A stretch of 64,000 bases of DNA from Mytilus edulis (Eukaryota). The DNA lies in contig NC_092348.1 in assembly GCF_963676685.1 (NCBI RefSeq), forward strand, positions 58,404,001 to 58,468,000. The letters run 5' to 3'. The notes under the pieces were generated by a model. The model worked only from the letters and a program-made list of their open reading frames with translations, made no database searches and was not told the DNA's origin. Shown piece by piece: positions 6,501 to 56,236 of the stretch (within the stretch, counting starts at the first letter, position 1; every line of letters begins with the position of its first letter). The position numbers were made by a program, and so were the translations under genes.

Positions 6501-9500
6501 ACTTAACACTAAGCATGATACGTAATTCCATATTATGATTGGAAGATACATTTATTCTTAAAGATTATTAATTCAGATTGTAGTTTATTTTGAATAGTCT
6601 TATGTTGTGGCATTCCACAATAACTGCAGGAATTCTGATGTTGACCCAGGACATGTTCTTCCGCCTTTCTTCCTCAGACAATTTAAGGCGTCTTAACCTG
6701 AATCCGTGGCAGGTGTATTGATTGATATTTGAGTCGAGCGCTCGAAAAAAGTTTAATCCCTCCAATTTTAATGTGTCTCTACCTGATCATAAGCCTGAAG
6801 CCCATTGTTGTTGTTAGATAATAACAAAACTTCTGTCATATTTATTTTTCGTTTAATGTATATCAGGTCGCTAGAATTTTCTGTTTTGTTATCCGAAGTT
6901 TTTCTTTTTCTACAAGATATGCATTTTGAATTTTTAAAATCTGATTGGTTTCATAACGGAATATCACTTCAAAACAAATGCATAACTTTTTTTTTTATTT
7001 TGATTTCATAACAAGGTTATAGAAGTTGAATGCTTTTTATTTCGTTTATTAGCTTTCCCCCCCCCCCCCCCCCCCCCCCCTTTTTCATAAAAATTTACTG
7101 GTCAACGTTTTGCAAACAATTTAAAAAATCAATTTCAGTCTTTCTGTTAACTCGGCCTACGCATCACGATTCTAATGACGATAAGCAACACGACGAGTGC
7201 CACATGTGGAGCAGGATCTGCTTACCCTTCCGGAGCACCTGAGATCACACCCGGTTTTTGGCGAGGTTCGTGTTGCTTACTTATGTATTATTATTTGTCT
7301 GTTTATCTTTTAAATTTTAAGTATGGCGTTGTCAGTTTATTTTCAATATACGAGTTTGACTATCCCTCTGGTATCTTTCGTCGCTCTTTTGAGGGGGGAA
7401 GGACCTTTTTCGGGACGTCGGGATTGACCCTTTCGGGATCCGGGATTTCTTTTTTCGTATTTCGGGATGTCGGGATTTAATATTTTTCAGGATCAGGACC
7501 CCTCTCTCTCTTTTGTATAGAAATGAGGTTTTTCGAACTATTTGTTTTTAAACTATGAAATCAAGAAATACAAATGCAATTAAGCAATTGTGTACCTTAA
7601 AACTTATTTAATATATATTTGCATCAAAACTTACCTTGAGCCACCCCATATAGAAGAAAAATTGCAGCAATGTGAATATAGGAATATAAAAATCCATTCC
7701 ATATCCTTTGTAGTTCTTCGAAGGATCAAGGAACTGTTGACTTATTAATGTGGTTGCAAAAAATGTATACACGGCTAATGTTACAACCTAAAAGAGAGCA
7801 ATGATAAATACTAATTACTAAACAGCATACCATCGGAAAATTAATTCCAAAAGAAAATAGTTTATAAGTGTTCCATGAATAATACTTTGTACTTGTGTGT
7901 TTAGTTATTCAGTATACCGTTATGTAAGTGATTTCTGTACTAATTTTCCTTATTTTAACTATTCAAAAGATTAAAGTATTGGAATTAGTTATCAAAGGTA
8001 CCAGGATTATAATTTAATACGCCAGATGCGCGTTCGGTTACATAAGACTGATCAGTGACTCTCAGATCAAAATTGTTATAAAGCCAAATATGTACAAAGT
8101 TGAAAAGCATTGAGGACACAAAATTCAAAAACGTAGGTAGTTTCTGTTTTGTGTATGAACTTATTATAAAGGGTTGTTTTAAAGTGATCTTTTTTGTCCA
8201 TATGAAAGGCATCATTTATGAATGTACATGCTCTCCTTAACAACTTTACAACATCGAATATCTTTAAACATTTTATTCAAGACAATTTCCTTTGCTGAAT
8301 ATAAAAATATAAGTCAGAAGCAATATAAGATGGATAGTTCATTTCATACTTTAAAACAAAAGAAAACCCTTGTGAATAATGAAGGTTTTGAATGTCGGAC
8401 TAACGCTACCTGAGTAATATAGTCACCTGGGTGTATACTAAAGGTATTGTTATCCAGTCGTATACAAAACACTTCGAACAAGTATCCCTAATGTCTGCAA
8501 GAGGCTGAAACAGAAGTTTTACCATAAAAACATCTTAGATTACAATGGTAATATATCATTGCACGAGGTAACGAATTTAAGCCCCTACATAGACTGGACA
8601 TAGATATGGCTTCGTATATACACCACCAAACCAACGCCTTTTAATCACGGGTTTACATTCTTTGTCTGGAACAAGAGTTTTGCAAGGGCCCTTGTGTGTC
8701 TGGACAGCGAGGTTTATTCCCACACATTTATTTAATTAAATTCTCCGAATTCGAGTGTATAAATATATATGTAACAGGTATCAATTTTTCTTGAAAAAGT
8801 CTCAAACGAATGCTCCACGGCAAACATGTTTTGATCACACATCGTTGTCATTTTAATGGAATTTGACCCGACTCATATACAAGTGAGAGGTTCAGCACTT
8901 TAAAACCAGGTTTAATCTATCATTTTCTACTTAAGAATACGCCTGTACCAAGTCAGGAATAATGACAATTGTTATCCATTTTTTTTTGTGAGTTTAAGCT
9001 TTTGATTTTGCCATTTGATGAGACTTGCCATTTTAAATTTTCCACTAAGTTCAGTATTTTTGTGATTTTAATTTTTACTTATTTTGATTAACACAACAGC
9101 TAAAGAAACTCTTAATTTTTAAATTGCATTTACAATGTGCAAAATATTTCAACTGTACTTTCACCCCCAATATACAACAGCTAAAGAAACTCTTAATTTT
9201 TAAATTGCATTTACAATATGCAGGCCATGATATTTCAACAAACTTTCGCCCCCAATATTGTTTCAGTCATAATTCTTTCACGATATTATGTAAAAAAGCG
9301 ATAACGACTAGATTTTCAATAACTATTATGTTTATTTCAGTGAGGAACCATGCTTTTAAAAATTATCATACACTCAAATTTATTAAAGCAAACGCGAGTT
9401 ATTGTACAATTTCTATAGGAACGAGTGAATAATGTACCAGTCATAGTGATAACCATAGTATCATTTAATAGCAATTTTTCAGTTTATAAATGCAATTTGT

Positions 9501-12500
9501 AGTTTTCTTTAATTTTATAATTAATGAATCGCGATTGTGTTTTATTAAAGGGACATCACTCTAAACACAGAAACCACACCTAAATGGTCATTAACATGTA
9601 AAAGTCTGTTGATGACCGGTTTTCTTGTCCGTTTTTCTGTTAAGGACCGATGGATTGATTTTACTATAGAATAAAGAATGTCATGTGTTACCTTGTTATC
9701 CAATAAGAGAAGATAATTCTTGACCGATATGAATTAATAGTATTTTGAGTGGTAAGGATTATCATTACTTATATAATATACCTCTATTATCATTCTGAGA
9801 CCCCATTCAGTTTGTATAAGGCCTTCTTTTCTTGCTGTTACAAGTACACTATTAATCCACATGAAGGGAACCCAAAACTTGTTGTATCTGCAATCGATGT
9901 TTTCATACATCATTGCTTCCTCTTTAGTAATGAATCCTAAAGAGGAAGTAAAAGAATACAGATTGTTGAAGTATAAAGGATACTGTTAACCATTTTGGAG
10001 CAATTTAAATCTTCTTTTTTTTCGGTAAATATATATTTTCCATTGTTCTTAGAACTTATTGTTTACCGCTTATTTATTTTACCTCTTTATATTATCTTCT
10101 TTGTCTTCCTTTATCAATACTCACAGGGTTCGTGTTGCTTAGTCTTTCATTAGTTTTCTGTTAAATGAAAACTTTTACCAACATATTTTTTATCAAATAA
10201 AAGTCACCTTTATTTGATAAATGGCTTGAAAGAAACCATAATGTTCAATGAAATAGTCTACCCAACTATATTTGACTGGTATCTATTTGATTGTCCTTTG
10301 CTTATTGTTTAGTGGCAAATATTTCATGGCAACTAAGGCCGAAACAAAAATTCGCGAATGATTTTGCAAAATACTTCACTACAAAATTGATATATAGTTA
10401 TCAAAGGTACCCGGATTATAATTTAGTACGCCAGACGCGCGTTTCGTCTACATATGACATAAGACTTATCAGTGACGCTCATATCAAAATATTTATAAAG
10501 CCAAACAAGTATTAAGTTGAAGAGCATAATAATATGAAAGTATTTAAAAAAAAAAACTGTAAAATGATCAGAGTCTGTTAGCGTATCAATTTGGTAGCAT
10601 GTGCCATTTAACGTGATCTAATATTGGAACCTGCTATACAAAGATCTAAACATTTTCAATTGTCCAGTGCTAATTATGATTAGGAGTTATCTCTCTGTCA
10701 CCACGTGGAGATGCCCAGAAATAACATATTACTCGTTAGTCAATTACAAGATTGTTCAAAAACTATGTTTTATTCATTAACAAACTGATTTATTCATTTA
10801 TGAATGATATTATTGTACTGCACTAATCAATACAACCCCACGTGCACGATTAGAATAATTAAATATATCTTAATGTATTTCACCATGCACGAACTTCACC
10901 CATTCGTCAATATGAATAACAGCCATGTTATATTCCATGTGATTGTGTGAGATGTATAAATACGCAAACACGTCACGTCGATATTAAACATAAATATTCA
11001 ATCAATGTAAAGTACCATCTAAAATATTTTGTCTTTTGGAAGAAAAAAACTATATGGTAGTTTTTAAGACACCTATTTATTACCTGCTTCCACGATGTGA
11101 TCCAATGTAGGAAATCTTTTCATGACAGCTACACTTATTGAACGAGCTATTAGTATAATTCCAAACATCAGATATCTTGCAACTGTTCTTCTGAGTACCC
11201 GCTTCCTGTCTGTTTGTCCGGGAAGATAACAACACAACATGAATACGGTCCTATAATTGTTTTTCAAAAACTGTTACACATAATTCTTGACCACTTAATA
11301 CTAGTAAAGAGTCTTAAAATATCAAATTAGACGAGAATGAACCAAAGCGGTTTTCCGGATTTTCTCTTTCGTAGTAATCAGTTATATGTATATAAAAAAA
11401 GAAGATGTGGTATGATTGCCAATGAGACAGCTCTCCACAAGAGACCAAAATGACACAGCAATTAACAACTATAGGTCACCGTACGGCCTTCAACAATGAG
11501 CAAAGCCCATACCGCATAGTCAGCTATGAAAGACCCCGAAATGACAACGTAAAACAATTCAAACGAGAAAATTAACGGCCTTATTTATTTTTATAAAATG
11601 AACGAAAAACAAATATGTAACACATAAACAAACGACAACCACTGAATTACAGGCTCCTCAGTCCTCAGTGACTTGGGACAGGCACATAAATACATTGTGT
11701 GGCGGGGTTAAACATGTTAGCGGGATCTCAACCCTCCCCTAACCTGAGACAGTGGTATAACAGTACAACATAAGAACGAACTTAAAAATCAGTTGAAAAA
11801 GCTTAACTCATCAGATGGACAAAAATACAAGTGGACGTGGATGGGTACTTGTACATCCCAACAACAAAAAGATACTAGGAACATATTTGAGAGTATTCGC
11901 AGTTAACTGACAGATAGTTAAAGCCACTAACAACTAATTGAAAAAATCATGCATCTAAAACTAAATTATCAATCCGTACACATCCAATAGATTTAGTGTA
12001 AAGACGCCATAAACAGTCAGAGAAAAACATGACTTTGTGCAATGCCAAGATACAGGTATCGACATCTTGTAGATCCATGAATGTGTATATGTTACAGTAT
12101 ATAACATACTAGTAATATTTGGTTTGCATTTAATTTACTGATAACATAATCAATATTTATACCAATAAAAACAATATGCAATGCTTTTATTACAGTGTTA
12201 AATTGGTAAATTTTTGAAATAAGTTAATTTAAAGTTTACCAGGATCATTTTTGAATTTCCGGGCACGGTTAACAACATTTCCGTAGAAATGATGAAGTGC
12301 TATTCCGTTTGAAATAAGTTTTCTACAGGTACAACCAAAATTCTAAACCAAATCTTTATATCTATGAAAAAATTTAGTAAAGGTTTTAAGTGATATATGG
12401 TAACGATATCCCTGGTTTAATAATTTACCAGTAATACATAGATTACGTTCTTTAAAATAAAAAAACGTCACAACATACACGGGCATAGCGAACGAGCTAT

Positions 12501-15500
12501 ATAAACACCGTAAGATGGTAACAAAGGAACACCGCCATCTAAAATTTGAAAATTAACAATAGGGAACGAAAAATTGTTCCTTTTGTCGTAAATTTTAGTA
12601 TAGAGTTTCCCGTTTAAAACCGAAATATCTAAATCTAGCAAAGGACAGTAATTACCGTTTAAATTTGATTTATTTAAAGTTAGTTCCTTGGGGTCAATTT
12701 CAGCAGTATGTTGATTATTTAACGAAAAATATCATCAAGATTTATAACGGTAAGTGTTGTTGAATTTATCAATTAAATGCAATTTCTACGGTTCTTTACT
12801 GAGTTTAGTCATAAACTATACATATTGAAATGTTAATTCAAGTGTCTGTAACAAGTTTTCTCCAGGTACATCAAAACTTCGAAACAATTAATCTGTAATT
12901 ATGAATTATTGAACTCAGGTTTTTTTAAGAAATTTGTGGAAACGATATCCCGACTAGTTTACCATTGGTTTAGAGTACGTTACCACAGGCAGAGCCTTAT
13001 CGAACGAGTAAAGCATTCTTATCGGCATTCCAATGGGAACAAACTGTGCCCCTCTACTCGCCGACTTGTTTCTTTATTATTATGAGGCTGACTTCATGCA
13101 GGAACTTCTTAGGAAGAAAGATAAGAAGTTAGCAATATCCTTTAACTCTACTTTCCGCTATATAGATGATGTTCTTTCACTAAACAATTCAAAATTTGGT
13201 GACTATGTGGAACGCATCTATCCAATCGAACTAGAGATAAAGGATACTACAGATACAGTTAAGTCGGCTTCATATCTTGACTTACATCTAGAAATTGACA
13301 ATGAGGGTCGGTTGAAAACAAAACTTTACGACAAAAGAGATGATTTCAGCTTTCCAATTGTGAACTTTCCATTTCTAAGTAGCAACATTCCAGCAGCACC
13401 TGCATACGGGGTATATATCTCCCAATTGATACGATATTCCCGTGCTTGCATTTCCTATCATGATTTTCTTGATAGAGGTTTGCTGCTCACAAGGAAGCTA
13501 TTAAACCAAGAGTTCCAAATGGTGAAGTTGAAATCATCCCTTCGTAAATTTTACGGACGCCATCACGAGTTGGTTGACCGTTATGGAATAACCGTTTCAC
13601 AAATGATATCGGATATGTTCCTTACGTCGTAACTACAATCCCCTTCCCTTTCATGAATATGACCTACCGAATTAGACTATTTACCGGATTTGTAATCACT
13701 TAAGCAACACGACGGGTGCCACATGTGGAGCAGGATCTGCTTACCCTTCCGGAGCACCTGAGATCACCCCTAGTTTTTGGTGGGGTTCGTGTTGTTTATT
13801 CTTTAGTTTTCTATGTTGTGTCGTGTGTACTATTGTTTTTCTGTTTGTCTTTTTTATTTTTAGCCATGGCGTTGTCAGTTTGTTTTAGATTTATGAGTTT
13901 GACTGTCCCTTTGGTATCTTTCGTCCCTCTTTTGGATATATAAACATCGTAAGATTGGACCAAAGGAATATCACCATCCCAAAGCAAAATTAACCATAGA
14001 AAACAAAAAAGTCCCTTTTATTGGAAATTGTTTATGTATATATAGCCTTTCATTAAAAATAAAATACAGGAACATTTCTTATAAAGAGGCGCAATTGGTG
14101 CCAATGGGAATACATATAACCTCTAGATACAGTTTTAAGCAGAAACATACCGTGAAATTGGTGTTGTCAAGGAGTAAACAGTACAACATTAATTTAATTC
14201 TCATTACATTTCAAATCAGTTTATTTAGCATATATTCATTTCTTAATTTGGCGTATAAATATTCGCATACGCTTTAATCAGTAATTCGGTTTTCACACAT
14301 ATATATCCAGATTTCGCGCCTTTTCTCTTGTCGAGAAAAAATTACTGATCAGATCGACACGTATATTTTGCATTCATGATATTTAATTGCAGTTATCTCT
14401 TTTTCTGATATAACATTTTTATATATGTAGATTTCCTACCATTTTTCGGAGATCCAGAGACCATGATTTACATGACCAGAGTTATTAAACTGATCAGTAC
14501 AATTTCCCATCCCAAATGGGTTTTTTTTATTTTATGTATTATTAAGACAATTTTTATGTTCGTATGAGTATAGCGAAGAAGAACATAAGAATATGTTATC
14601 AACACTAATACCCATACATCCTATCGATACTCTAGTTTTGGAATTTCACTGACTGATTATGACGTCTTTATACTTAATTCATTGGAGGTATTATGGCTGA
14701 CAGGTAAACTGATTTTTATAGTTTGTTCTTATGTTGTACTGTCACACCACTGTCCTAGGTTAGGGGTGGATGTGTGTCCCGCTAACATAATTAAGCAACA
14801 TGTATGTGTCTGTCCCAAGTCAGGAGCCTGTAATTCAGTGGTTGTCGTTTGTTGATAATATGTGTTGCATATTTATTTTTCGTACATTTTTTGTTCTTTA
14901 ATAGGCCGTTAGTTTTCTCGTTTGAATTGTTCTACATTTTTCATTTCGGGGCCTTTAATAGCCGACTATGCGGTATGGGCTTTGCTCATTGTTGAAGGTT
15001 GTACGGTGACCTATAGTTAATTTTTGTGTCATTTGGTCTCTTATTGATAGTTGTCTCCTTGGCAATTATACCATAAATTCTTTTTATATTTAGTGTTGGA
15101 AGAAATTGTTTCTGAACACAGGCAAGGCCGAAGTTTTTTTCTTTTGAAATGCTTCTCATTTTGTTGTGCGTAAAACTTTCAAATATATAGCTTACTAATT
15201 TGTTTTGTCCTTTAGGGTTTAAGGATAGCTTTATCATTAACAATCAAACCACATCTCGTTAAATATGTATAATGATGCTCAACCATCCCCGATATAAGTT
15301 TTTTAACTATTGTGTCATCAAATTGCATTTATATATTTATCACTTGCAAAATATCCGATATGTTCTTTTTTTTAAGAAAGCAGTAAAAAATAACTTATGT
15401 AATAGAATTACCTGTCTGGCCAAGGAAAATTCTGGAATTGTCTCCACCATCTTGAAACTACCATGGAAACATAAAATCCGAGAACAAATGACAGAGGAAT

Positions 15501-18500
15501 ATAGGAAGTATACTGATTACAAGATATCACGACCTTTTCAAATAATCTGATAAAAAAGAAAAGGAAACATTTTAGTTACTATAGATTTCTGTTCATTATA
15601 TAACATTAGAATGTTTAAAAAACAAAAAAGTAGTGCCGTGAATAGGATTTTACGATAAGTAAAATTTCACTTCTGTAATACTTCTTTTATTACGAGAATA
15701 TGAGAACTTGCTTATACCTTCTTTAACACACGAATTTACACCTTGGACTCTGTGATTTGTTTTGAATTTGATGTTGGTAATGTATGTCTTGTTGCTCTCG
15801 GTCAGAATTTTGTCTATCCTTCCAGGATGTACAAGGATTCTGCCACGTCCGGCTAGAATTGTGACGTTAAATCCGATGCTTCGTATAGTGATAGCGTCAG
15901 GCTCTCTGCATAGTCCAGCCCTGGCCTCAGTGACTTTTCAATTTTTTTTAAATTTTTTTTCAGTGAGTCCAGCTCGCCTTCCATTACCTTCAATGGTGCA
16001 AGCTCCCGGTGTGATTACTTGGGCGCTCTAGTATAGTCCCTATCGTCCCCGGGTAATCTACCCGGGCGCTTGAAACATTGAAGGTAATGGAGGGGGAGCT
16101 GGACTCAGTGACAACAACAAAAATAAATAATTAAAAAAAAAGTCACTGAGCCCAGGGCTGGACTAGCTCTCTGCACTGTTAGAACCCTTCCAAAATCTCT
16201 TCGAGGGAACCGCATATCTGGCCTCTTGCAAGATAAAATTTCTGTCCCTTTTCAAATTACCCTCATTTTCCAGTTGCAGCCAAAACTTCCCTACCATCTA
16301 TGCCGGACGGCCTTTATAACGCAAACTAATGGTGATATGCATTGTTATTTGTTCTCATCTTTAACCTGAACAAAATATTTGCCACTGGACGTAAATCAAC
16401 CACTAATTAATCAATTATGTATATTTTGCAATGAACCCAAGGACATATTTATTTTAAATGGTTCATGATTTTCAGTCTTTTTTTGTCCGTGCAATGTGTT
16501 TGTTTCGTGAACATTTTTTTTTTTTGCCCCCTCTTTACATTTCTATTTCTATTTTATGCTCAAAAGATTTTTCTAAAATTTAAGATTTTTATTTTTATTT
16601 AAAAAAAAAATCATTTTAGCTCCATCCAGATAACGTATTAAAAACTTTACATATTTGAAATATTTCACTAATATACACCATATACTTGCATAAGACTTAC
16701 ACTATAACAGTACAAATCTACTGTATTTACGTATGTTAATAGTAGATGTCAAAATATGAAGTGTATACTAGGTCAGTTAGTTTGACAAGTTATAAATAAA
16801 ACCGACAGTATGTTTTTTTTTATTTACGTATAAATATAACTGACTTAAATATAATGTTAAAAGGATATTTTAGGTAAAATATAAAAGTAGTATACACGTG
16901 TTTAAACATTTCACTAATAAGCTATAAAAATAGACAATGATTGCAAACTTTTAGGTAGTTGCACGAATTCTAAGCTATTGTGTCAACGGCAATAACATTG
17001 AAAACATGTAATAATGTCAGATAGACATATTGAACGTAGACAGTATAAGATATGTTACAAGATTTAGTATATTACGAGTTCAAACCCGGTAATAAGTCTA
17101 ATTCGGTAGGTCACATTGTAAAAAGGGGAAGTGATTTTAGTTACGACATAAAGATCATTTTAGTTACGACATTAAGAACATATCTATCATCTCACATCTG
17201 TGAAACGGATATTCCGAAACGTTCTACCAACTCGTGATGGCGTCCGTAAAATTTACGAAGTTATGATAATTTCATCTTCAGCACTTGGCACTCTTGGATT
17301 TCAACGCAACGAGACGACCGTTTATATGCTGTATCAGCCGAGATGGATAGAAGTCTTTAACTGATCGCAAACGGTACTGTTGCTTCTCAAGAGTGAACTT
17401 GACAATGGGAAAACTAATTATAGTTAATAACTAATCCGAGTTTTGTGGGGTCTTGTTTTTTTTTCCGCTGACAAACCGCGGCTTGATACACTACATGCAC
17501 TTTATGTCAAATTGTCAAAGAATACAGCTAAGGTAATCTATGCCTGAGGTAGAAAAGCCTTAGTATTTCAAAAAATTCAAAAATTTGTAAACAGTAAATT
17601 TATAAATATAATCATATCAATGATAATTCATGTCAGCACAAAAAGTAAGCACCTGAAGTCTCCAATAACAAAACAAACTCAGAGTGCTAAAGTAATATAT
17701 AGTAATATGATGTCTAAAAATCTTAGGTCAGATTTAAAGAATTCCAAATAGCGACAAAGGTCTACAGTGTCAACAAAGAGAACCCAAAGATCCTACTGCA
17801 AACCAGATTTTAAATGGAAAACCCAGTGACAACCCATTAAGAGTTTCCAAATTAACAATAGGTACACAATGATGTGGCGGGGTTTTACATATTGTGTGTA
17901 AACAAGACCTGTACCTTTTATATGGATCAATTTATATGGGGTAGGGTAGGGAAGACAAACGATAAAAAAAGCATAAAACAAAAATAAAAACCTTTCTAAT
18001 AGAGACTGTTCCGTCTAGGGGCGACAATTTATTTGACAAGAGAAGTCGGAGTTCCCCATATGTATAAACAGTTCTATTTATATCACCTAAAAGTATACTG
18101 CATATATTGACATACATATGTACATTGACAACATGGTCGTTTTTGGAAATTAAACATATTTACATTATCCATCCGATTTTTCTCGATTGTTTCCAATACC
18201 GAAAGTATCATCTAATTTATACTTGCCATGAGAAACAATGAGATACTACGAATGGAGCAGGAAATGCTTAACCTCTAGGAGTACATGAGTTCGTCCCTAA
18301 GGTTATGTTGTTAAGGTGTTTGTGTTGCCTTTGTCTTTAGTTTAGTATAATTTACTCCTTAATCTATCAATATCTCCGATGTTTCTGTTGGTATTAGTCT
18401 TCTTGAAATTATTATTCTCATTTAAAATCATCTTCAAATTCTACAAGGTTGATAAAGTACTTACGTTCTCTGGTCTACATTAAGTACCAACCGATATATA

Positions 18501-20389: not shown

Positions 20390-21100
20390 TAGATAAAGGC
20401 AACAGTAGTATACCGCTGTTCAAAACTCATAAATCCATGGACAAAAAACAAAATCGGGGTAACAAACTAAAACTGAGGAAAACGCATTAAATATAAGAGA
20501 ACAACGACACAACATTAAAATGTAACACAAACAGAAACGGACTAAGTATTAGACAAAAACCTATGAGAATAAAAAATATAACATCAAAACCAAATACATG
20601 AATTTGGGATAGATAAGTACCGTGACACGTCTTATAGTAATGTGAATTCACACTAAAAAAATAAAAGAAAACAAACGACACATCGGAAACACAACGTGAA
20701 AATGTAACACACACAGTAACGAACTATAATATAACAATGGCCATATTCCTGACTTGGTACAGGACATTTTTAAAGTAAAAAATGGTGGGTTGAACCTGGT
20801 TTTGTGGCATGCCAAACCTCTCTCTTCTATGGCCGTGTGAAATATAACATTAAAATGACAACACAACATTACAGGACTACAGTATAAATAAATAGGAGAA
20901 CACAATTAACAAACAAACACACGAATAATAGCTAACAAAAGGCAACAAGTTTAAAACTTTAATACGCCAGAAGTGCATTTTGTCCACACAAGACTTACTC
21001 GTGCCGCCCAGATATAAAAATTTGAAAGCCGAAACAAGTATAAAGTTGAACAGCAGCATCGAGGACCAAAAGTTCAAAAAGGTTGTGCCAAAAACAGCCA
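20390..21100 (-). mobile_element. Non-coding retro-like element carrying a twister (20739-20834) and a degenerate hammerhead (20964-21007)
   Basis: Its left part is repeated at about 4574-4770; its right part matches the hammerhead-containing repeat at 7986-8132 and 10394-10526. Confidence 0.7.
20739..20834 (-). ncRNA. Twister ribozyme variant (ACC/GGU pseudoknot)
   Basis: GGCCAUA...GA-GGU...C^AA-CCC-AC-(CAUUUUU/AAAAAUG)-CCUG-UACCAAGU-CAGG-AA-UAUGGCC. Confidence 0.72.
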
Positions 21101-29187: not shown

Positions 29188-29631
29188 TCAACCTAGGTCT
29201 AATACGTGAGTCATATAAGATATATAACAAATAGCTAATCTTAAAATTTCAATTTTTGATAATTTTTTATCTGGAGGTAGTGTTGGTAATAATTTTCGGA
29301 GCTCAGAAAATGCCACATTGAAAGCCTCTACACGAATTCTTTCCCTAGTAGCATGAGCCGTTCTGTATTTTTGTGTTGCCCTTCTCCTGCGTCTGCGCTC
29401 TTCACGGCTTAAACCTTGTTCATGAGAACCGTCGCCATTTTGATCATGACTATCGTGTCCGTCAGTACAACTCGAATTCTTCATGAAACAGAAATCGTCC
29501 ATGCTTTTCTCTTCGGAACTAGGTGTAATACCACAGTCTGATTCGTTGAAATCTGATTTCGGTGATAAGTTGTCAAAATTATGTTCTCTGATATATCCAT
29601 ATTCAAACATTTCTCTTTGGTAGTTCTTCAT
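29188..29631 (-). CDS. NHLH1: NHLH/HEN/NSCL-family neural bHLH transcription factor (HLH4C-like)
   Basis: [60 protein letters not shown] matches the NHLH bHLH. A splice acceptor (TTTTCAG) lies just upstream of the ATG, so an upstream exon is likely. Confidence 0.93.
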
Positions 29632-30633
29632 ATTTTCTGAAAATAAACAACAATTTTGTAATAAACTCTGCTCATCAAAATTTATGATAAAAAGAACTCC
29701 ATAGTATCTACATTTGTTTCCCTAGTTTTAGATTTTTCCAAAATGGTACACCTAAAATGACTTTTGTACAATAGTCGACAAAGGTACTGATACATATATC
29801 TGAAGTCAAATTTATGATCAAATTTGATAAATATGAAAAACTGTTATATCATCAAAACTAACACACCCTTTTGCAAACCAAACACAACAAGTTGGATAGG
29901 AAAAAAATATAGTAAATTTATGGAAACATTGGGATCAAAACTAGTATGCACAAATTGATGACAAAATCTATGCCCAATTTCAAAGATGAGAATTCTTTAT
30001 TCAAATACCTGTGAAGTCTGTGAAGGCATTCAAAAGTTAGATCAGACCTTGCATACAATATATATGTTACAAATTTTTAGTTTTATTATTTTAAATAGCA
30101 CTGACCATCGCGCTGTAGCGTAGGCAATCGCACTTTAGCTTGACCATTGCGTTTTTTTGTCCCAATCGCGTTTAGAGTCGTATAAAATATTTGTTTTACT
30201 CTTTCGGAACGAACAAATGGATATTTTACTTCCACAAGGTCGGAAACCCATAAATCATGATAGTACAATCAGCCTAATAGACAGTACTTCGGTCCTGGCA
30301 GGATTTTGTCAGAAAATTTCAAGGAATAAATAATCGATCAATTGTACAAAAAAAAATAAGGTTGAAAGTTGATTTTGGACGGTTTTAGCTCGTAAATATG
30401 TAAAATTGAGAAAGGAAATGGTGAATATGTCAAAGCGACAACCACCCGACCATAGAGCAAACAACAGCCGAAGGCAACCAATGGGTCTTCAATGTAGCGA
30501 GAATTCCCGCACCCGTAGGTGTCCTTCAGCTGGCCCCTAAAATATGCATAAAAGTACAGTGATAATGGACGTCATACTAAACTCCGAATTATACACAAGA
30601 AACTAAAATTTAAAATCATACAAGACTAACAAA

Positions 30634-30724
30634 GGCCAGAGGCTCCTGACTTGGGACAGGCGCAAAATTGCGGCGGGGTTAAACATGTTTATGAGATCTC
30701 AACCCTCCCCCTATACCTCTAGCC
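30634..30724 (-). ncRNA. Twister ribozyme, P5-type permutation, in PLE 3' region
   Basis: GGGG-GA-GGG...U^AA-CCCC-GC-C-(GCAA/UUGC)-G-CCUG-UCCCAAGU-CAGG-A, closed by a 10-bp P5 GGCUAGAGGU/GCCUCUGGCC. Confidence 0.82.
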
Positions 30725-30908
30725 AATGTAGAAAAGTAAAAGAATAACAATACGCACATTAAAATTCAGTTCAAGAGAAGTCCGAGTCTGATGTCAAAAG
30801 ATGTAACAAAAGAAAATAAACAAAATGACAATAATACATAAATAACAACAGACTACTAGCAGTTAACTGACATGCCAGCTCCAGACCTCAATTAAACTGA
30901 TTGAAAGA

Positions 30909-31039: not shown

Positions 31040-31807
31040 TTAGTTCCGATGCAAAGACCCTATCAGTGAATCAATGTTAAAGCCAAAATATGCAATCTTT
31101 AATGACCTGACAACAGTATCGTAACTATATCCCCTTTTAATAAGTCTATTTAAAGGTTTTGTTAGTTTCTGAGGAGAATACTGACATTTTTGTGCTTTAT
31201 AAAGAATATTTCCATAAAATTTTGGATGTGAAATACCTGAACGTATAAGATGTCTGCATGTTGAGTTATATTTACGAATTATTTCCTTATACCGGTGATA
31301 AAATTTAGTAAATGTTTTGACCAGTTTGTGATATCGAAAACCCTGGTGTAATAATTTTTCAATAATACATAAATTTCTCTCGCTAAAATCTAATACATTG
31401 TTACATACACGAGCGAATCGTACAAGTTGAGATATATAAACACCATAAGATGGTGACAAGGGAACGTCACCATCTAAAAATGGATAATTAACAATAGGAA
31501 ATGAAAAATCATCTCTTTTATCATAAATTTTTGTATTAAGCTTCCCGTTTATGATATAGATATCAAGATCGAGGAAAGGGCAGTGGTCATTGTTATCATT
31601 AGCTTTATTTAAAGTAAGTTCTACAGGATAAATTTCTTTAGTATACATACTGAAGTCGTCATTATTTAGAGCCAATATATCATCCAAATATCTAAAAGTA
31701 TTGTTAAATTTTTGTATCAAATGTTGTTTTGATGGGTCTTTGCTAATTGTAGTCATAAATTGTAACTCATAACAATACAAAAACAGGTCCGCAATAAGTG
31801 GTAGCAT
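31040..31807 (-). pseudogene. PLE reverse transcriptase fragment (open, 5'-truncated)
   Basis: 255-aa ORF with RT motifs 4-7 and thumb; the ATG comes from the flanking junction. Confidence 0.85.
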
Positions 31808-45091: not shown

Positions 45092-46008
45092 TTAAGTGTT
45101 TTATTTCTGTTTTCTTCGAAACAACAATGTTGTTAAGCCATAACTTGAAGTGTACAAATGAACGGACAAAGTATAAAAACCCACACACCGAGCCCCCTGG
45201 AATCTAATCAATTTGCCAATTTGAGTCACGTGCAAGACTATAAGAGGGTCAAATGGAACATGCAGAATAGCCAGAAACTTTGCTTGATGAAGTTTTACCC
45301 TTTGTTATACAAGTGCATGATAGTTTACGGGTACCACAGGTGGAGCAGGATTTGCCTACCCTTCCGGGGCATCTGAGATCAACCCAATTTTGGTGGTGTT
45401 CGTGTTCGAGTCTTTTAGTTTTCTATGTTGTGTTTTGTGTGCTGTTGTTTCTCTGTTTGTCTTTTTGTTTGCCATGTTGTCAGTTGATTTTTGACTAATG
45501 GGTTTAAATGTCACTTTGATATCTTTCGCATCTCCTTTATCGGAAACTGCAAATGTATGTTACAGTATCAACATGACCCTATGACAAAGACATAAGCAAA
45601 TTGATAGTGGCTGCTTTGATGGATTGAAGACAAACAACAGAGTAGAACTTATTATCCATAACAGATCTTCCACAGACAATTTACAGTTAAATTACAGCTG
45701 AAATATAAAAAATATAGATTAAATCAAAAATCATTTAAGTAATAGCCAACTTGCTATGGTTGCAATTTGTGCTTAATGATAATTAAAAAAAAAAAACAGA
45801 TAAAGGTCGCTTCCATTAAGCGTAAACATTCCTCGTCTGTAACCATCGGGATAGTTTGGACCAAATATACAACGTCGGTCCAGATAAATGTAACAAAAAT
45901 GTAGAAGTTGCAATTTTGTATCAAAATGCCTTCAACAGTAACACATTTGATGAATAAACTGTTTAACGTTTTAGAAATATCAAAAAATGTGAAACATATT
46001 TTAAGTAC

Positions 46009-48430: not shown

Positions 48431-49841
48431 TTAGAATAGAACAAAAATACAACACTCCATTGTATCTGTCTATATTTTTCATAAACCGTTCTACTCTCAT
48501 GATTATGTCATGCAAATGTATCTGTCACTCAATTCAGATTCAGATTGAATATTTTATTTAAGTCTCACCACTCGGCCGAAAACATTCTAATACTTATATA
48601 AAACTTACAATAAAATACCAGTAGCTTAATTACTAAAACATATATACCAGTGCCATTATGTCGAGAATCGGGAGAGACTATTACAGACACTGTACCAAAA
48701 CTAAAAGATTCGATAACGATGTAAACACTTTACAATTTTGAAACAACAATGGATTTGAAATTAAAATATGATGAAACTGTAAGACATGTTCTGTTAAGCA
48801 TTGTGGTCATTGTTTTTAGTTGTCTGGCTAGTATAGTTTTGAAAAATTGACGCAGACTAATGGCTGTTAAACTTTCAGTAGCAAATTAAATTTTTTTTTT
48901 CAGGACAATTATATATTATATAACATGCTTTATTCAAAATGAATATAAACCATGTTTTGTACGGCGGAGGACATTTGATAGGACATTTTAGCGATCGAAA
49001 AAAATATGACGTTTGAGCGCCAAAGTAGAACCCATTTGAGCGCCAGATTTTTAACCCATTTTAGCGAAAATTAAAATTGTCAAAGCCCATTTAAGCGAAA
49101 TATTTTTTAACCCTTTTTACTTTTTACTAAGTTTTAGTAAATAAATAATATATAATAAATTTAAAAAAATGTTTAATAGACTCAAGACAGCACAATATAA
49201 AACAATATAAAACATGTCCATTAAAATACAGCACTAATAGACTCAAGACAGCACAACATAAAACAATATAAAACTTTTCAATTAAAATACAGCACTAAAA
49301 GTCTAAAAGATTAAATCAAATGTTAAAAGTCTGTTCTAGCCTGGAATTTATAACCTAGAGAACGTATATATGTAATGGAGTCTAAATAAACCCCTTGTAC
49401 AATACTGTTCATAGAAATGCATTAAAACTGTTCTTTCTCTTTATCTTGTCTCGATTGTGGTGCACATTTCTCTATGCTTCGTATCTTTATATATGTTGTT
49501 GTTTGTAATTTCATAATAGTATCTAGGAAAACATTAAACCCATATAAATTGCTGTTCATGGAATATATATATATTTATTAATAGTATCGGAAGCACATGA
49601 CTTGTTTGTGTTTGTTTATGTTCAACACGTGTTGATGAGCACATGGTTGCATACCTGGTTTGTTATTGTATGATTTGATTGGCTATTGTATGTCGCAATG
49701 CAGGTATTCTACCCGTTTGTACGAGGGTAGGATCGTGATTCTCGTGCAGAATCTCATTATAAATATAAGATATTTTTATAACCAGTTATTCGAAGTTCTG
49801 CCTTTACAGAGTAGCATACCTTCCGTTTCGTTATACACATA

Positions 49842-50588
49842 ATGACCGAAAACCACTCAGACGACGAGGACACTTTGCTTTTGCACGAGCCACCAGTACA
49901 TTCAGGTGCCAAGTCTAGTTCTGTACCACAGATAAGTGATCAAACTTTTGAACTTTTTACATCTTATTTTGATAGTAAGATTTCTTCTCTGAAGAACGAG
50001 TTAGTCTCCGGGAACGACTCCCTAGCTAAGAAGCTCAAGAAAGAGGTGTCTGTTAAGCTTAAGGGGGAAGGGAATCAGATTCAATACTCCTTCAACTCAG
50101 ATATAGTTTCCGAATTGCAGAAACTTCAGAAGCGTACATCCGCGGAAGATTCCGTTAGCACCAATTTGATATCGGGCCTTATTCTTAAAATCAACAGGAG
50201 GAATAAATTGATTCGAATTGCCGACAAGTCGCCAGCAGGCTGGTCCACAGTCAGAGAATACGAAAGTGATGACCTGGCATCAGATTCAGAAGATGAAAAA
50301 CGCTTACGGCAAGCAGAAAGCAGGGCCCTGAAGACAATCAAAGAAAAGAAAACCCGTGGAAAACCTTACTCAAAACCGTCCGCCACCGTTTCTAGACCTG
50401 CCAACCCTACTGATACTAGTAACAGTTACTATCAGCCTTACAACGCTACTCAGCAGCCCTTTCCGAGGTTCCGTCGCCGCGAGGCGACCCCATACGACAC
50501 CTGTTACGAGTGTCACCAAACTGGCCACTTCAAGAGGAACTGCCCAAAAGCAACAAACAAACCAACCTTTGGAAACTTGTCAAAGTGA
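49842..50588 (+). CDS. gag: Gag-like protein of the DIRS element
   Basis: CYECHQTGHFKRNC CCHC knuckle; RNKLIRIADKSPAGWSTVREYESDDLASDSEDEKR block; starts immediately after repeat A1. Confidence 0.9.
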   Translation: MTENHSDDEDTLLLHEPPVHSGAKSSSVPQISDQTFELFTSYFDSKISSLKNELVSGNDSLAKKLKKEVSVKLKGEGNQIQYSFNSDIVSELQKLQKRTSAEDSVSTNLISGLILKINRRNKLIRIADKSPAGWSTVREYESDDLASDSEDEKRLRQAESRALKTIKEKKTRGKPYSKPSATVSRPANPTDTSNSYYQPYNATQQPFPRFRRREATPYDTCYECHQTGHFKRNCPKATNKPTFGNLSK

Positions 50589-52599
50589 AAAGATACAAGA
50601 TGAGTATATTTCTTTTGTTGACAATTTAATGCTATTTGGTCATAGTAATGTTCTCTTTCAACATGTTAAATATTTTGATAATATAGATTTTTCAAAAATC
50701 GCCAAAGGAGTAAAATCAAGCTTATTTAAACATATAGAGTTTTGGAAACACATTGGGGCCAACAAATTTGTGTTGGACACCATTGAAAAGGGTTATATAA
50801 TTCCATTTATGAAACAACCCCCTCCAATGAAATTTCGGAATAATAAATCTGCTTTAAAAAATAGTTTGTTTGTAAATGAAGCGATAACTGAGCTAATTAG
50901 CAATGGCTGTATTCTAGAAGTACCATTTCAACCATTCGTCGTTAATCCTCTCAGTGTTGCTACACAAAAGACTGGTAAAAAGCGTTTGATTTTAGATTTA
51001 AGTGAATTGAACTTCTATGTTTTGAAAAACAAGGTAAAATTTGAAGATTGGAAAATTGCAATGGAATTCTTCCAAAAAGATCATTTTCTAATTAAATTTG
51101 ATTTAAAATCTGGATATTTTCATTTGGACATCTGTAAAGAACAACAAACATATTTAGGTTTTTCCTGGAATAACAAGTTTTACTGCTTTTCTGTATTAGC
51201 TTTTGGTTTGAGTAGCGCCCCCTATATATTCACTAAATGTTTGAGACCAATGGTAAAGTATTGGCGAGAAAATGGTGTTAATATTGTTCTTTATCTGGAC
51301 GATGGATTAAGCATGGATGAAGGTTATAAAAATTGTAAAGATACTTCTGAATTTGTAAAGTCATCACTTAAACTGGCTGGATTTATTGTCAATGAAGAAA
51401 AATCAATTTTTGAACCGGTTCAGTGTTTAGAATGGTTAGGATTGATTTGGGATTCTAAAGATTTTACTTTAAAGGTGCCAGAGCGCAGAATTAAAGACAC
51501 TAAAAATTCTCTTGATATTATACTAAAATCATTTTCAAATTTGAACGCACGTATGCTGGCTCAATTTGCCGGAAGAATTATATCAATGTCACCAGTTATG
51601 GGTAATGTCACAAATTTAATGACGAGGCATATATATTTCGCGATAGAAAACAGAAAAACGTGGGATTCAAAACTATATTTAGTATATGAAAAATGTGTAT
51701 TAGCTGAATTGAAATTTTGGCAGGAAAACTTGTTGGAGCTTAATGAGAAGCGTTTATTGAATGATTCTTTACCGAGAATTATGATATATTCAGATGCAAG
51801 TAATGTAGCTTTAGGTGCATATACTGTTGAATCAAATGAAAAGATTTTTCATTGTATGTTGAATGAAAATGAGAAAAAATTGAGTTCCACTTGGCGTGAA
51901 CTCAGGGCTATTCAGTTATCGTTGAATTCGTTTGAACACGATCTGAAATGTAAAATAGTTAAATGGCATACAGACAACCAAAATTGTGTAAATATAATCA
52001 ATAAAGGCAGTACAAAGTTGCATTTACAACATTTAGCTTATGATATTTTTAGAACATGTACAAGGTCGGGTATCACGTTGTGTCCTACTTGGATACCTCG
52101 GTGTGAAAATTTCAAAGCTGACTTCATATCTAAAATGGTTGATATTGATGACTGGCAAACCTCGTTTCAGTTTTTTACTTTCATGAATGAAATTTGGGGT
52201 CCTTACACAATCGATAGATTTGCCAATTTTCATAATACTAAACTGAAAAGGTTCAACTCAAAATTTTGGAATCCAGGAAGCACTGCTATTGACGCTTTTG
52301 CTCAAAATTGGACAATGGAAAATAATTGGATGGTTCCTCCGATAAGTTTAGTGGCTAAAAGTATTAAACATCTCATTCTCTGTAGAGCTGAGGGAACATT
52401 GATCGTTCCAAAATGGCCTTCATCGGCATTTTGGTCTTTGATTTTTAATAGAAGATTGGAATTTCAACCTTACGTTATAGAAGTTCTTGATTTTTCATCA
52501 GGTCAGAATATATTTGTTCAAGGACAGAATAAAAACTCCATTTTTGGTAACAAGCATTTTAAGTCTGATATACTGGCAATTAAGATGAAAGCGACTTAA
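50356..52599 (+). CDS. pol: Reverse transcriptase / RNase H / DNA N6-adenine methyltransferase-like polyprotein (start uncertain; first in-frame ATG 50629)
   Basis: RLILDL, KFDLKSGYFH, LAFGLSSAP, YLDD, WLG; RNase H YSDAS/WREL/TDNQ/ADFIS; MT-like IDRFA...FNSKFWNPG..AIDAF...WMVPP...LIVPKWPS. Confidence 0.93.
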   Translation: MENLTQNRPPPFLDLPTLLILVTVTISLTTLLSSPFRGSVAARRPHTTPVTSVTKLATSRGTAQKQQTNQPLETCQSEKIQDEYISFVDNLMLFGHSNVLFQHVKYFDNIDFSKIAKGVKSSLFKHIEFWKHIGANKFVLDTIEKGYIIPFMKQPPPMKFRNNKSALKNSLFVNEAITELISNGCILEVPFQPFVVNPLSVATQKTGKKRLILDLSELNFYVLKNKVKFEDWKIAMEFFQKDHFLIKFDLKSGYFHLDICKEQQTYLGFSWNNKFYCFSVLAFGLSSAPYIFTKCLRPMVKYWRENGVNIVLYLDDGLSMDEGYKNCKDTSEFVKSSLKLAGFIVNEEKSIFEPVQCLEWLGLIWDSKDFTLKVPERRIKDTKNSLDIILKSFSNLNARMLAQFAGRIISMSPVMGNVTNLMTRHIYFAIENRKTWDSKLYLVYEKCVLAELKFWQENLLELNEKRLLNDSLPRIMIYSDASNVALGAYTVESNEKIFHCMLNENEKKLSSTWRELRAIQLSLNSFEHDLKCKIVKWHTDNQNCVNIINKGSTKLHLQHLAYDIFRTCTRSGITLCPTWIPRCENFKADFISKMVDIDDWQTSFQFFTFMNEIWGPYTIDRFANFHNTKLKRFNSKFWNPGSTAIDAFAQNWTMENNWMVPPISLVAKSIKHLILCRAEGTLIVPKWPSSAFWSLIFNRRLEFQPYVIEVLDFSSGQNIFVQGQNKNSIFGNKHFKSDILAIKMKAT

Positions 52600-52828
52600 T
52601 GATGTTCGAGTTTATTTGTACATATTGTTAATTGTTTACAATATGTGAAATTTGCATTGTATTGCAAATTTGGTTCTGACACGGCTATGTATGTTGATAT
52701 AGCAAGAATACATGTAGTAAGATGTATGACACGGCTATATATGTTGATATAGCAAGGTCTAGTGAATAGTACGATGTATATGAGATATATAAAAAAAAAA
52801 AAAAAAAAAAGTTTTATAATATTATTAT

Positions 52829-53869
52829 TTGTTTATTTTATTTATACGTTTTGCAGATGTTTTTAGTACTGGTCGTTGGTCTAAGGATAAAATACCACAG
52901 AATGAAGCTCTTAGCAATCTTGCAAAATGTCTTCCAGATTATTGTTTAAATTCTAGAGCTGATAATACTAGAAAGAAATACAGGTATGCATTTAATAGCT
53001 TTTGTAAATGGTGTAATTTATTTAATATAAAGCCTTTACCGGCATCAGATTACAATGTCTCATTATATTTGATTCACTTACGAAAAAATTATAATTCTTC
53101 TGCAAAGATAGATGAAGCATATTATGCCATTCAATGGACACACAAATTAGCTGGATATGTAAATCCTTGTGATTCTTTTCTTTGTACTTCCGTAAAAGAA
53201 GGTACACAAAGGTCAATCGGTCATCACATTGTAAACAAGAAGGAACCAATAACTCCTCATATTCTTAATCAACTGGTTTTGAAATACGGCAATACAAATA
53301 GTACTTTAAATCATAGAAGAATAGCATGTATGTGTCTCGTTAGCTATGCCGGATTTTTAAGATTTTCAGAATTAGTTAATTTAAAAAGGTCAGATGTTTC
53401 ATTTCATTCATTATATATGTCTTTATTCATCGAAAAAAGCAAAACGGACCAACAAAGAGCAGGAACTCATGTTTTTATTTCCAAAACATATTCGGTTACC
53501 TGTCCAGTTCAAATGTTAGAGACATACTTGAACCAAGCGAACATTAAACACGATTCTGTAGAATTCATATTTAGATCAGTTTTATATCGTAAAAAGACTA
53601 ACACGTACGTGCTAAGGGGTCATGCGCCTTTGTCTTATACAAGAGCCAGAGAAGTACTGTTAGAGGCTTTAGAATCTTTGGGATTAGACAAATCAAAATT
53701 TGGTTTGCATAGTTTAAGAGCAGGTGGAGCAACAGCTGCGGCTGCTGCTGGTATTCAAGATAGAATATTTAAGAAACACGGTAGATGGTCTTCAGATACA
53801 GCAAAAGACGGATATGTGCGTGAAAATATTTCTGAAAAACTACTCGTTACTAAGAATCTTGGCTTGTAA
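52829..53869 (+). CDS. Tyrosine recombinase (integrase) of the DIRS element; true start probably spliced
   Basis: Catalytic R (LRFSEL), K (KSKTDQ), HxxR (HSLRAGG), HGRW and Y (DGY). Confidence 0.92.
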   Translation: MFILFIRFADVFSTGRWSKDKIPQNEALSNLAKCLPDYCLNSRADNTRKKYRYAFNSFCKWCNLFNIKPLPASDYNVSLYLIHLRKNYNSSAKIDEAYYAIQWTHKLAGYVNPCDSFLCTSVKEGTQRSIGHHIVNKKEPITPHILNQLVLKYGNTNSTLNHRRIACMCLVSYAGFLRFSELVNLKRSDVSFHSLYMSLFIEKSKTDQQRAGTHVFISKTYSVTCPVQMLETYLNQANIKHDSVEFIFRSVLYRKKTNTYVLRGHAPLSYTRAREVLLEALESLGLDKSKFGLHSLRAGGATAAAAAGIQDRIFKKHGRWSSDTAKDGYVRENISEKLLVTKNLGL

Positions 53870-56192
53870 TTTTCATACCAGTTTTTTCTTATCTACTTTG
53901 TCATTTCGAAAGTGTGCTACTCACAAGGAGAGCTCATTCCTATTGTATACATGTGTTGAGTTTTATTGACTAAATAATTTATGTTCGGTTAAGCTTGGCG
54001 AATTAGAACATAAATATATTTATTAATAGTATCGGAAGCACATGACTTGTTTGTGTTTGTTTATGTTCAACACGTGTTGATGAGCACATGGTTGCATACC
54101 TGGTTTGTTATTGTATGATTTGATTGGCTATTGTATGTCGCAATGCAGGTATTCTACCCGTTTGTACGAGGGTAGGATCGTGATTCTCGTGCAGAATCTC
54201 ATTATAAATATAAGATATTTTTATAACCAGTTATTCGAAGTTCTGCCTTTACAGAGTAGCATACCTTCCGTTTCGTTATACACATCCCCCACCCACCCCA
54301 CCCATTTTGATAGATTTAAGTTAGACAGTAATGATGTGACAAGATATATTGTAATAATAATGTATTTATTGTGTTTTGTAGATTGTTGTTGATTTTGATT
54401 TTTAGTGGGATGGAGTCCCGATACGGTGTTTTGTTATATTGAGAAAATTGTGTGATTTACTAGGAGTAATTTGATGCAGATGGATGTTTGAATGACAATT
54501 GAAATATGAATATATATGAAATGGTTTGTTGTTTGAAGAAAAATAAAGTTTAAGTGTGCTACTCACAAGGAGAGCTCATTCCTATTGTATACATGTGTTG
54601 AGTTTTATTGACTAAATAATTTATGTTCGGTTAAGCTTGGCGAATTAGAACATAAATAGTAAGGTGAGCATTATTCAACCAGGTAAATTTTCGCTAAAAT
54701 GGGCTAAATACAGGTGAGCGGATTAATCTGGCGCTTAAATGGGCTCTAATGTCGGCGCTCAAATGTCCCCTTGTAGTTTTATTTTTTTTGCTCAAATGTC
54801 CTGCGCCCGTTTTGTATACGTATACTAGACTGACACGGCAAGCTGGATTACTACCAAGCTCGATTATAAGGTGACAGTCATCAGGAAGACACATGTCACA
54901 TTACCCAGATATAATATTTCGACTCCATGTCGACCATGCAGTTGTTTGTTCTAGGAGAATCAGCAAATGCTACTGAATTGATAAGGTTTCGGTTTGACCC
55001 GACTGGAAGTGGCATCAACGCCCTACTACCACTCTACAAAGGAGGTAGTTGTTAACTTAGAACATTGACAACACAATACAAATAATGATAATAATTATCA
55101 AAAATATCAAAAATGGTCTGGCATCAGATTAAAGAAATTTGTAGTTGCAAATGAGACATAAATTAACTCAATTATTCACTATAAAAAAAGAAATAAATAT
55201 AGAAAAAAAAAACTAGAGACGTCTATCGGTTAATGTACAGTATTCAACAATAAACAAGTCAATATATACCATATCAAGCTCTCAGTCTAGAAAGAAATAT
55301 AAGAAACCACAAATCTTACATATGATAAACAACTCATACCAAAATTGAAAAAAAAACTAGACAGCTTTGGATAAATTGCTGATATGTGACTGGCATATGA
55401 CCACATGGCGATGTCAAGATAGTCCTGAGTGTTTTAGTTTTTTGGAGCCCAACCCTCCCTTGTTGATCTATGCATCAATGGAATCAAAAAGTTGTACAGA
55501 AATAATATCAAAACTAAGCCGTATTCAAGAATGCTTGTATTTTTTTTTAAAGAATGCTCAAGTTCTAGCTCTACAATGGACACAAGCACTCTAATGTTGT
55601 AGTAGCTGTAATAGGTATACGTATCACCGTACGCGTACACATAATAACCCAGTTTTAATCAGACTTATAAAATGAAGAAACAAAATTGTTTGAAAACAAA
55701 AATTATCGCTTTTTTCAGGGAAATATTTGTTTAAAATATCAAAGGTGTACGTCAAGATATGAAGCAGACCATCAATAATAAAAACAAATCACGTCTTGGA
55801 TTTTTTTTTTAAAGATTTGTCAAAAACATAAAAGTCTCAGACATGTTTGTTTTTGCAATATAGAACAAATGTAAAAAGAAAATTTATATACTTTATTGTT
55901 GTGAGACTCAGGTGGCTGAACTAGACTTGCTAATGTTCAGAAATACCTTTAATACACAGAACACCTGCGAACGGCTGTCTTTTTCAGATTTCTAGTAACG
56001 AATCAATATTGTATACAAAAACACAGGAATATTTTTCCCTTTTCTAAGAATATGGATATAGAGGACAGTCATGAAATCTATCCGTGTTAGATTTATACAT
56101 TGCGAAATATTTTCGTATTATTTTCATTTTTCGGTCTTGATAGTAGACACAAGTTGTGTGCGGTCATGAAAAATAATGATTTTAAGATATGA

Positions 56193-56236
56193 ACGTCACT
56201 GATGAGTCTTATGTAGACGAAACGCGCGTCTGGCGT
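56193..56236 (+). ncRNA. Minimal type I hammerhead ribozyme (retrozyme/PLE type), intact core
   Basis: ACGUCA-CUGAUGA-GUCU(UAUGU)AGAC-GAAA-CGCGCG-UC^-UGGCGU; palindromic stem III. Confidence 0.92.

Follow-up and report, generated by a model that had tools for sequence, protein, structure and literature searches.

A conserved RNA fold with two palindromes and a pseudoknot in Naiad Penelope-like retroelements, a candidate self-cleaving ribozyme

The window analysed here is a stretch of 64,000 nucleotides of the Mytilus edulis genome (NC_092348.1, forward-strand positions 58,404,001 to 58,468,000). It contains a copy of a Naiad Penelope-like element (PLE) with a structured RNA motif, older copies of this motif, and twister-like motifs that belong to other Naiad families.

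13021..13933, forward strand: 5'-truncated copy of a very young Naiad PLE (RT end and 3' UTR/pLTR), ends mapped
7182..7391, forward strand: older short copy, starting about 2 nt upstream of stem P0 of the motif
45327..45528, forward strand: older short copy, starting about 2 nt upstream of stem P1, core mutated
18242..18341, forward strand: degenerate copy without P1 and palindrome A
11648-11714, 30645-30745 and 20748-20830 (reverse strand) and 8880-8957 (forward strand): twister-like motifs of other Naiad families

The older copies are matched by nhmmer at 7181-7282 (E 3e-25), 45326-45408 (E 3e-15) and 18242-18341 (E 8e-7). An earlier note on this DNA had stated that copies near 7183, 45328 and 18250 keep the motif. 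All three were found, but the copy near 18250 is degenerate, with both P1 and palindrome A gone.

The host element carries the marks of Naiad PLEs: a GIY-YIG-type N-terminus, CxC, DKA and RT (definition, including CxC and DKA, from the available part of section 6 of PMC8557442). In full copies (L032/L038), a 1,000-aa frame contains a GIY-YIG-type motif recognised by eye (VVYG..VYVG near residue 135-152, with CxxxxCxxC ahead of VVYG), CTC at about 432-434, ADKA at about 557-560 and RVT_1 at 645-854, and stops after the RT. Pfam gave no GIY-YIG call for this frame. The unit measures 3,370 bp and is present in exact tandem arrays as well as in 5'-truncated copies, as for the partial tandems and pLTRs of Naiads. 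Three motif copies at G000:C1:408158-414925 (L231-L233), exactly 3,370 bp apart, belong to the young family and make up a full-length tandem array. All 40 genome matches listed are 100% identical to the window copy across 374-376 nt, and a 28-mer from the motif is matched exactly 5,680 times in the genome. A pattern leaving out this main family gave 607 genome matches, mostly from one second family in which the sequences of palindrome A and the pseudoknot differ; the same genome also has a Naiad_Mgal-like family. The motif lies 83 nt past the stop of the RT fragment, 221 nt upstream of the 3' end of the element and about 300 nt upstream of the first ATG of the next unit.

Other features of the window include a type I hammerhead at 56193-56236 on the forward strand (Rfam, 36.1 bits), located in a short repeat with copies near 7986-8110, 10394-10527 and 20938-21083, which is likely the known mussel retrozyme. 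An element at 49561-54658 contains a zinc knuckle and an RT/RNase H/Dam-like frame, with frames that look intact. It has split repeats (49561-49840 = 54006-54285; 53910-54016 = 54552-54658) and is DIRS-like in architecture. An exon coding for a helix-loop-helix domain is located at 29188-29721 on the reverse strand (Pfam E 4.5e-20).

In the young copy, the motif consists of the following parts, all on the forward strand, with the basis of each assignment in brackets.

13703..13712: 5' strand of the outer stem P0, partner 13787-13796 (pairing sum)
13713..13718: invariant C, then P1 5' strand GGGUG, with G13714 pairing to U13759 (search pattern, consensuses)
13719..13728: palindrome A, loop-less, immediately 3' of the P1 5' strand (covariation)
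13729..13733: linker with invariant CAG at 13731-33 (CAG in 12/12 published consensuses)
13734..13738: pseudoknot 5' strand (pairs with 13761-65)
13739..13745: invariant GCUYAC-Y (GCUYAC in 12/12 published consensuses)
13747..13754: palindrome B, loop-less, its end flush with or 1 nt short of the P1 3' strand (covariation)
13755..13760: P1 3' strand CACCU and invariant G13760 (representatives, consensuses)
13761..13765: pseudoknot 3' strand (covariation)
13766..13786: P4 hairpin, variable in length (formed when the window copy is folded)
13787..13796: P0 3' strand (pairing sum, folding)

The motif also occurs beyond the Mytilus genome. A pattern in which only the invariant letters were fixed gave at least 121 metagenome matches. 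With two copies from the own genome these make at least 123 matches, which fall into 48 clusters; in at least 34 of the matches the end of a Naiad RT is found within the preceding 400 nt. RT identity among the motif-bearing metagenome contigs goes down to 34%. Of the 54 Naiad consensuses in File S5 of PMC8557442, as far as available, term searches found at least 12 that carry the motif. Two of these lie in the Clytia block, five are from bivalves, four from hemichordates and one from a fish, some of the names being inferred from file order. CAG and GCUYAC are present in all 12, though the search terms did not demand them, and by eye the pseudoknot has 5/5 pairs in ten and 4/5 in two. The P1 5' letters, set by the search pattern in the metagenome and genome sets, are seen unconstrained in consensuses found by other terms. 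The first P1 pair is G-U in 37/37 representatives, where the pattern fixes it, and G-C in 1/12 consensuses, where C replaces U13759. A search for prokaryote and phage versions with real loops yielded none, as a full pseudoknot is present in 0/13 and 0/125 of the pattern matches listed. A letter-free descriptor, run on pattern-selected DNA, returned only the known hits and one TA repeat. One well-formed motif (L120:1148-1261, reverse strand) lies antisense to a GIY-YIG-like frame in a locus with no Naiad RT match, and may mark another host element.

The fold was assessed in 37 representatives, comprising 35 cluster medoids from loci below 50% GC and the two own-genome copies; 13 GC-rich medoids were kept apart as chance-hit controls. 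The copies are related, so that shuffle values are not probabilities. The 5-bp pseudoknot forms 158 of 185 pairs in the low-GC set (shuffled mean 100, maximum 126) and, among the 15 RT-linked representatives, 70 of 75 (shuffled mean 46, maximum 60), and is absent from the 13 GC-rich controls (28 of 65 pairs, shuffled mean 29). P0 has a pairing sum of 180 in 35 representatives, compared with a shuffled mean of 151.9 and maximum of 169. Palindrome A occurs as 21 different perfect sequences of at least 8 nt, reaches at least 6 nt in 15/15 RT-linked representatives and lies directly 3' of P1 in 28/29 cases; all five of its pairs change on both sides. Palindrome B occurs as 11 different perfect sequences, reaches at least 6 nt in 13/15 and is flush with P1 or one base off in 26/27. 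A mild excess of palindrome A is also seen in the GC-rich controls (5/13).

Alignment A1 is 89.8% paired under this structure, against 71.0% when shuffled and 32-47% when slid, and 13 of its 22 pairs are altered on both sides; P1 is invariant there because the search pattern fixes it. The P4 hairpin passed a strict automatic test in only 5/14 RT-linked representatives, with more recognised by eye; a possible 3-bp stem RGC/GCU has zero two-sided changes and is broken in 7/37; G13730, a possible partner of C13740, is not G in 7/37. Within the palindromes, G-U pairs outnumber A-C (26 vs 8), as expected of a sense-strand RNA, while in the pseudoknot G-U is not above A-C (8 vs 9).

Judged by sequence comparison, P0, both palindromes and the pseudoknot covary across families, and the conserved parts are the pseudoknot, two self-complementary palindromes that change in sequence, and the invariant C-GGGUG/CACCU-G, CAG and GCUYAC. 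The motif is a real and ancient RNA fold, apparently undescribed. The same data make it very improbable that the palindromes act as DNA, as promoter or endonuclease sites with an incidental RNA fold: PLE promoters do sit in pLTRs (available text of PMC6765202), but the palindromes are free to change in sequence (21 and 11 variants), G-U is tolerated and the pseudoknot covaries.

This fold differs from the one originally drawn. All the stretches named in the earlier note are present at their positions, and the covariation it had called for exists. The first five pairs of its GGGUGC/GCACCU stem stand, while the sixth is broken in 13/37 representatives. Its AGCAG/CUGCU hairpin is not conserved, with the innermost pair broken in 22/37, and 85 of 500 shuffles match the pairing of its fold as a whole. 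It had overlooked the pseudoknot of 13734-38 with 13761-65, as well as the second palindrome, CUUCCGGAG. The hairpin was misread because single-strand folding predicts it here and cannot show the pseudoknot.

Being loop-less, the palindromes cannot close on themselves. As hairpins they are predicted to contribute 0 to -2.3 kcal/mol, and as duplexes -5 to -19 kcal/mol. In co-folding, dimers are predicted to be 5-17 kcal/mol more stable in 15/15 representatives, and pairing between molecules involves one or both palindromes in 13/15; the program cannot combine both palindromes with the pseudoknot. If both palindromes are paired, the middle strand would be swapped between the copies. PLE hammerheads also work as dimers, through one palindromic stem (available parts of PMC4209133 and PMC6765202).

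Among 11 published bivalve Naiad consensuses, in the available file, five carry the new motif (CGi, Sglo, Olur, Tgra, Pmar) and five a twister-like motif (Mgal, Bpla, Mphi, Scon, Mmer); Mcor, the remaining one, appears to end upstream of the motif position, and none was seen with both. The exchange also occurs inside the window, where another Naiad family (RT at 31244-31801, reverse strand) has a twister-core motif 583 nt past the RT. A related copy has a weak match to Rfam twister-P1 (E 0.19), with the core conserved. The twister-like motifs hold two adjacent loop-less palindromes that stand in place of P1, making them candidates for a dimeric twister variant; in the five bivalve consensuses the motif apparently has not been reported in the published text available. 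Naiads are described as lacking canonical hammerheads, and their authors' search covered only hammerheads and SECIS (available parts of PMC8557442). Since the new motif occupies the seat where sister families carry the twister-like motif, it is likely a new self-cutting RNA. The RT tree is too weak for counting the swaps. A further Naiad family (L064:1190-1890, reverse strand; L059:3675-4375, forward strand) has neither motif in the first 700 nt after the RT; L064 was inspected to 1,300 nt past the RT, where the 3' end of the family is not yet reached.

The same observations bear on the main competing explanation, in which a non-catalytic dimerisation or packaging element joins two element RNAs to serve the Naiad protein or template switching. 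It would account for the tandem copies and pLTRs, the exact 3,370-bp arrays, the two conserved palindromes and the invariant P1, whose near-invariant sequence fits protein recognition as well. A PLE protein is predicted to dimerise, and insertion in vitro does not require its hammerhead (PMC11167929, available text). We nevertheless consider this explanation rather unlikely. It is at odds with the substitution of a twister-core motif in sister families, and the pseudoknot and about ten invariant unpaired bases exceed what dimerisation needs. The 5' hairpin region, common to both kinds of Naiad family, is also the better candidate for recognition: by analogy with the system described in the available text of PMC11167929, it is the likelier RT recognition signal.

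Traces of cleavage were sought in genomic ends and RNA reads. Of 100 copies, 9 were removed by eye as internal indels, and 14 of the other 91 end in 13707-13751, a density of 0.0036 per nt compared with 0.0017 upstream (p 0.008) and 0.0028-0.0030 in two bins further upstream. Copy 5' ends are about twofold denser across the motif, broadly. Whole-genome starts, some of them indel artefacts, show no spike at the candidate sites 13714 (17) and 13743 (26), with 20 at the control position 13730. Position 13721, two bases into palindrome A, has about twice the copy starts of the other tested positions (43 vs 17-26). The twister control likewise lacks a spike (15 starts where its cut is predicted, against 25 at a control position, counted without denominators), which makes the 5'-end test uninformative. 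The argument from the 7183 and 45328 insertions fares accordingly: they do begin near the motif, but belong to a broad twofold excess of short copies with no fixed site, and lend the ribozyme no support. The RNA-read check suggested earlier gave no start or end site in four raw runs, where strands are about equal and reads mostly run through. An active PLE hammerhead gave the same blank in RNA-seq and needed its own protein for cleavage (PMC11167929, available text). With this hammerhead and the twister control equally blank, these results carry little weight.

A translation or stability element, IRES-like or a nuclease-blocking pseudoknot serving the next ORF in tandem transcripts, would fit the compact pseudoknot about 300 nt ahead of the next ATG, and the roughly doubled 5' ends inside the motif could stem from RT pausing at a stable fold. 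This leaves two loop-less palindromes and the twister-like swap unexplained, and we regard it as improbable.

Taken together, the comparative data suggest that the motif is probably a self-cleaving ribozyme with an undescribed fold and a dimer as its predicted active form. The earlier ideas of a ribozyme slot and of dimerisation find strong comparative support in the covarying loop-less palindromes and the swap with the twister-like motif. The weak match of the putative twister partner (E 0.19), the G-U to A-C ratio in the pseudoknot and the palindrome A excess in the controls count against the ribozyme. In tandem or multimeric transcripts, two copies would pair via both palindromes, and the junction around P1 in each copy would be completed by its partner's middle strand (CAG, pseudoknot strand, GCUYAC). 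Cutting by the dimer would leave RNA of unit length, possibly circles, for copying by the RT. If cleavage occurs, our best guess for the site, which we hold with less than even confidence, is the step C13713^G13714, next to the G-U pair, and C13740 would be a candidate general acid by analogy with HDV; GCUY^AC (13742/13743) would be the second choice.

Twelve classes of small self-cleaving ribozymes are known according to the available text of PMC10761166. It is conceivable, if somewhat doubtful, that the motif represents a new class: an obligate strand-swapped dimer, held together by two palindromes and the pseudoknot. Genomes from cnidarians to fish would each contain thousands of copies of it, and in Naiads it could be exchanged for a dimeric twister. 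Naiads would then not be ribozyme-free, overturning the view of ribozyme-independent proliferation, and a single slot would be filled by three unrelated motifs that share one dimer logic, a finding relevant to the purpose of PLE ribozymes. Even without cleavage, the RNA fold is conserved over four animal phyla and missing from Rfam, and its cross-phylum alignment is ready for use.

Rfam 15 has no match to the motif at E up to 10, in agreement with the earlier expectation, and none in the full 3,370-bp unit; none falls on the motif in 16 metagenome loci. No description of it was found in the full-text literature searched, including that on permuted HDV-like ribozymes, a scope that excludes subscription journals, Repbase and theses. 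The GCUYA segment resembles the long strand of the catalytic loop of twister-sister and TS-like ribozymes, G7-C8-U9-C10^A11 (PMC11620745, available part), but the 5+6 nt internal loop between two stems with its C^A site is absent and the partner strand is mismatched. With pistol (PMC8495972, available part) the motif shares a possible short stem with its loop engaged in a 5-6 bp pseudoknot, and an inter-helix linker as a possible cut site; it has no three-adenosine loop 1 and no invariant G (G40) after the pseudoknot (A in 23, G in 10 of 37).

The motif also has traits of HDV-like ribozymes (10.1101/2022.09.22.508989 and PMC8495972, as far as available). Shared features are the G-U (once G-C) first pair of P1, the invariant G after the P1 3' strand with a helix below it, and a G then a C right after the other strand of that helix, comparable to G74-C75. 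In the motif this invariant G-C follows the pseudoknot strand, and in HDV-like ribozymes the catalytic C directly follows the P4 3' strand. Unlike them, the motif lacks P2, P3/L3 and the nested double pseudoknot, has a changed strand order and a P1 of 5 bp of fixed sequence, and pairs the sequence 5' of P1 in P0. A palindrome stands at the place of P3/L3; a 3-bp pairing there is possible in 9/15, most of them of a single sequence type and with loops of 7-9 nt, but cannot form in 6/15, and no P2 was seen by eye. HDV-like P1 needs at least 6 bp (PMC8495972, available part), and the sixth pair is the broken one. That an HDV fold could not be completed, as first noted, is borne out by these gaps.

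The absence of twister and hammerhead from the host family, also noted at first, holds for the full 3,370-bp unit, in which no twister loop and no hammerhead core was found (CUGAnGA and GAAA, the descriptor used in the available text of PMC8557442). The twister L1/L4 core with two pseudoknots was not detected in the motif by a scan that does flag the sister motif. PLE type I hammerheads (PMC4209133, PMC6765202 and PMC11167929, in their available parts) share with the motif the pLTR position, the palindrome-driven dimer and the tandem context; unlike them, it lacks the hammerhead core, has two palindromes and a pseudoknot, and is found in a clade reported as hammerhead-free. The twister-like sister motif shares the Naiad 3' UTR, two adjacent loop-less palindromes and the rule of one motif per family, while core sequence and topology are not common to the two. 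What would be new is the fold, and the role proposed for it would be of a known kind.
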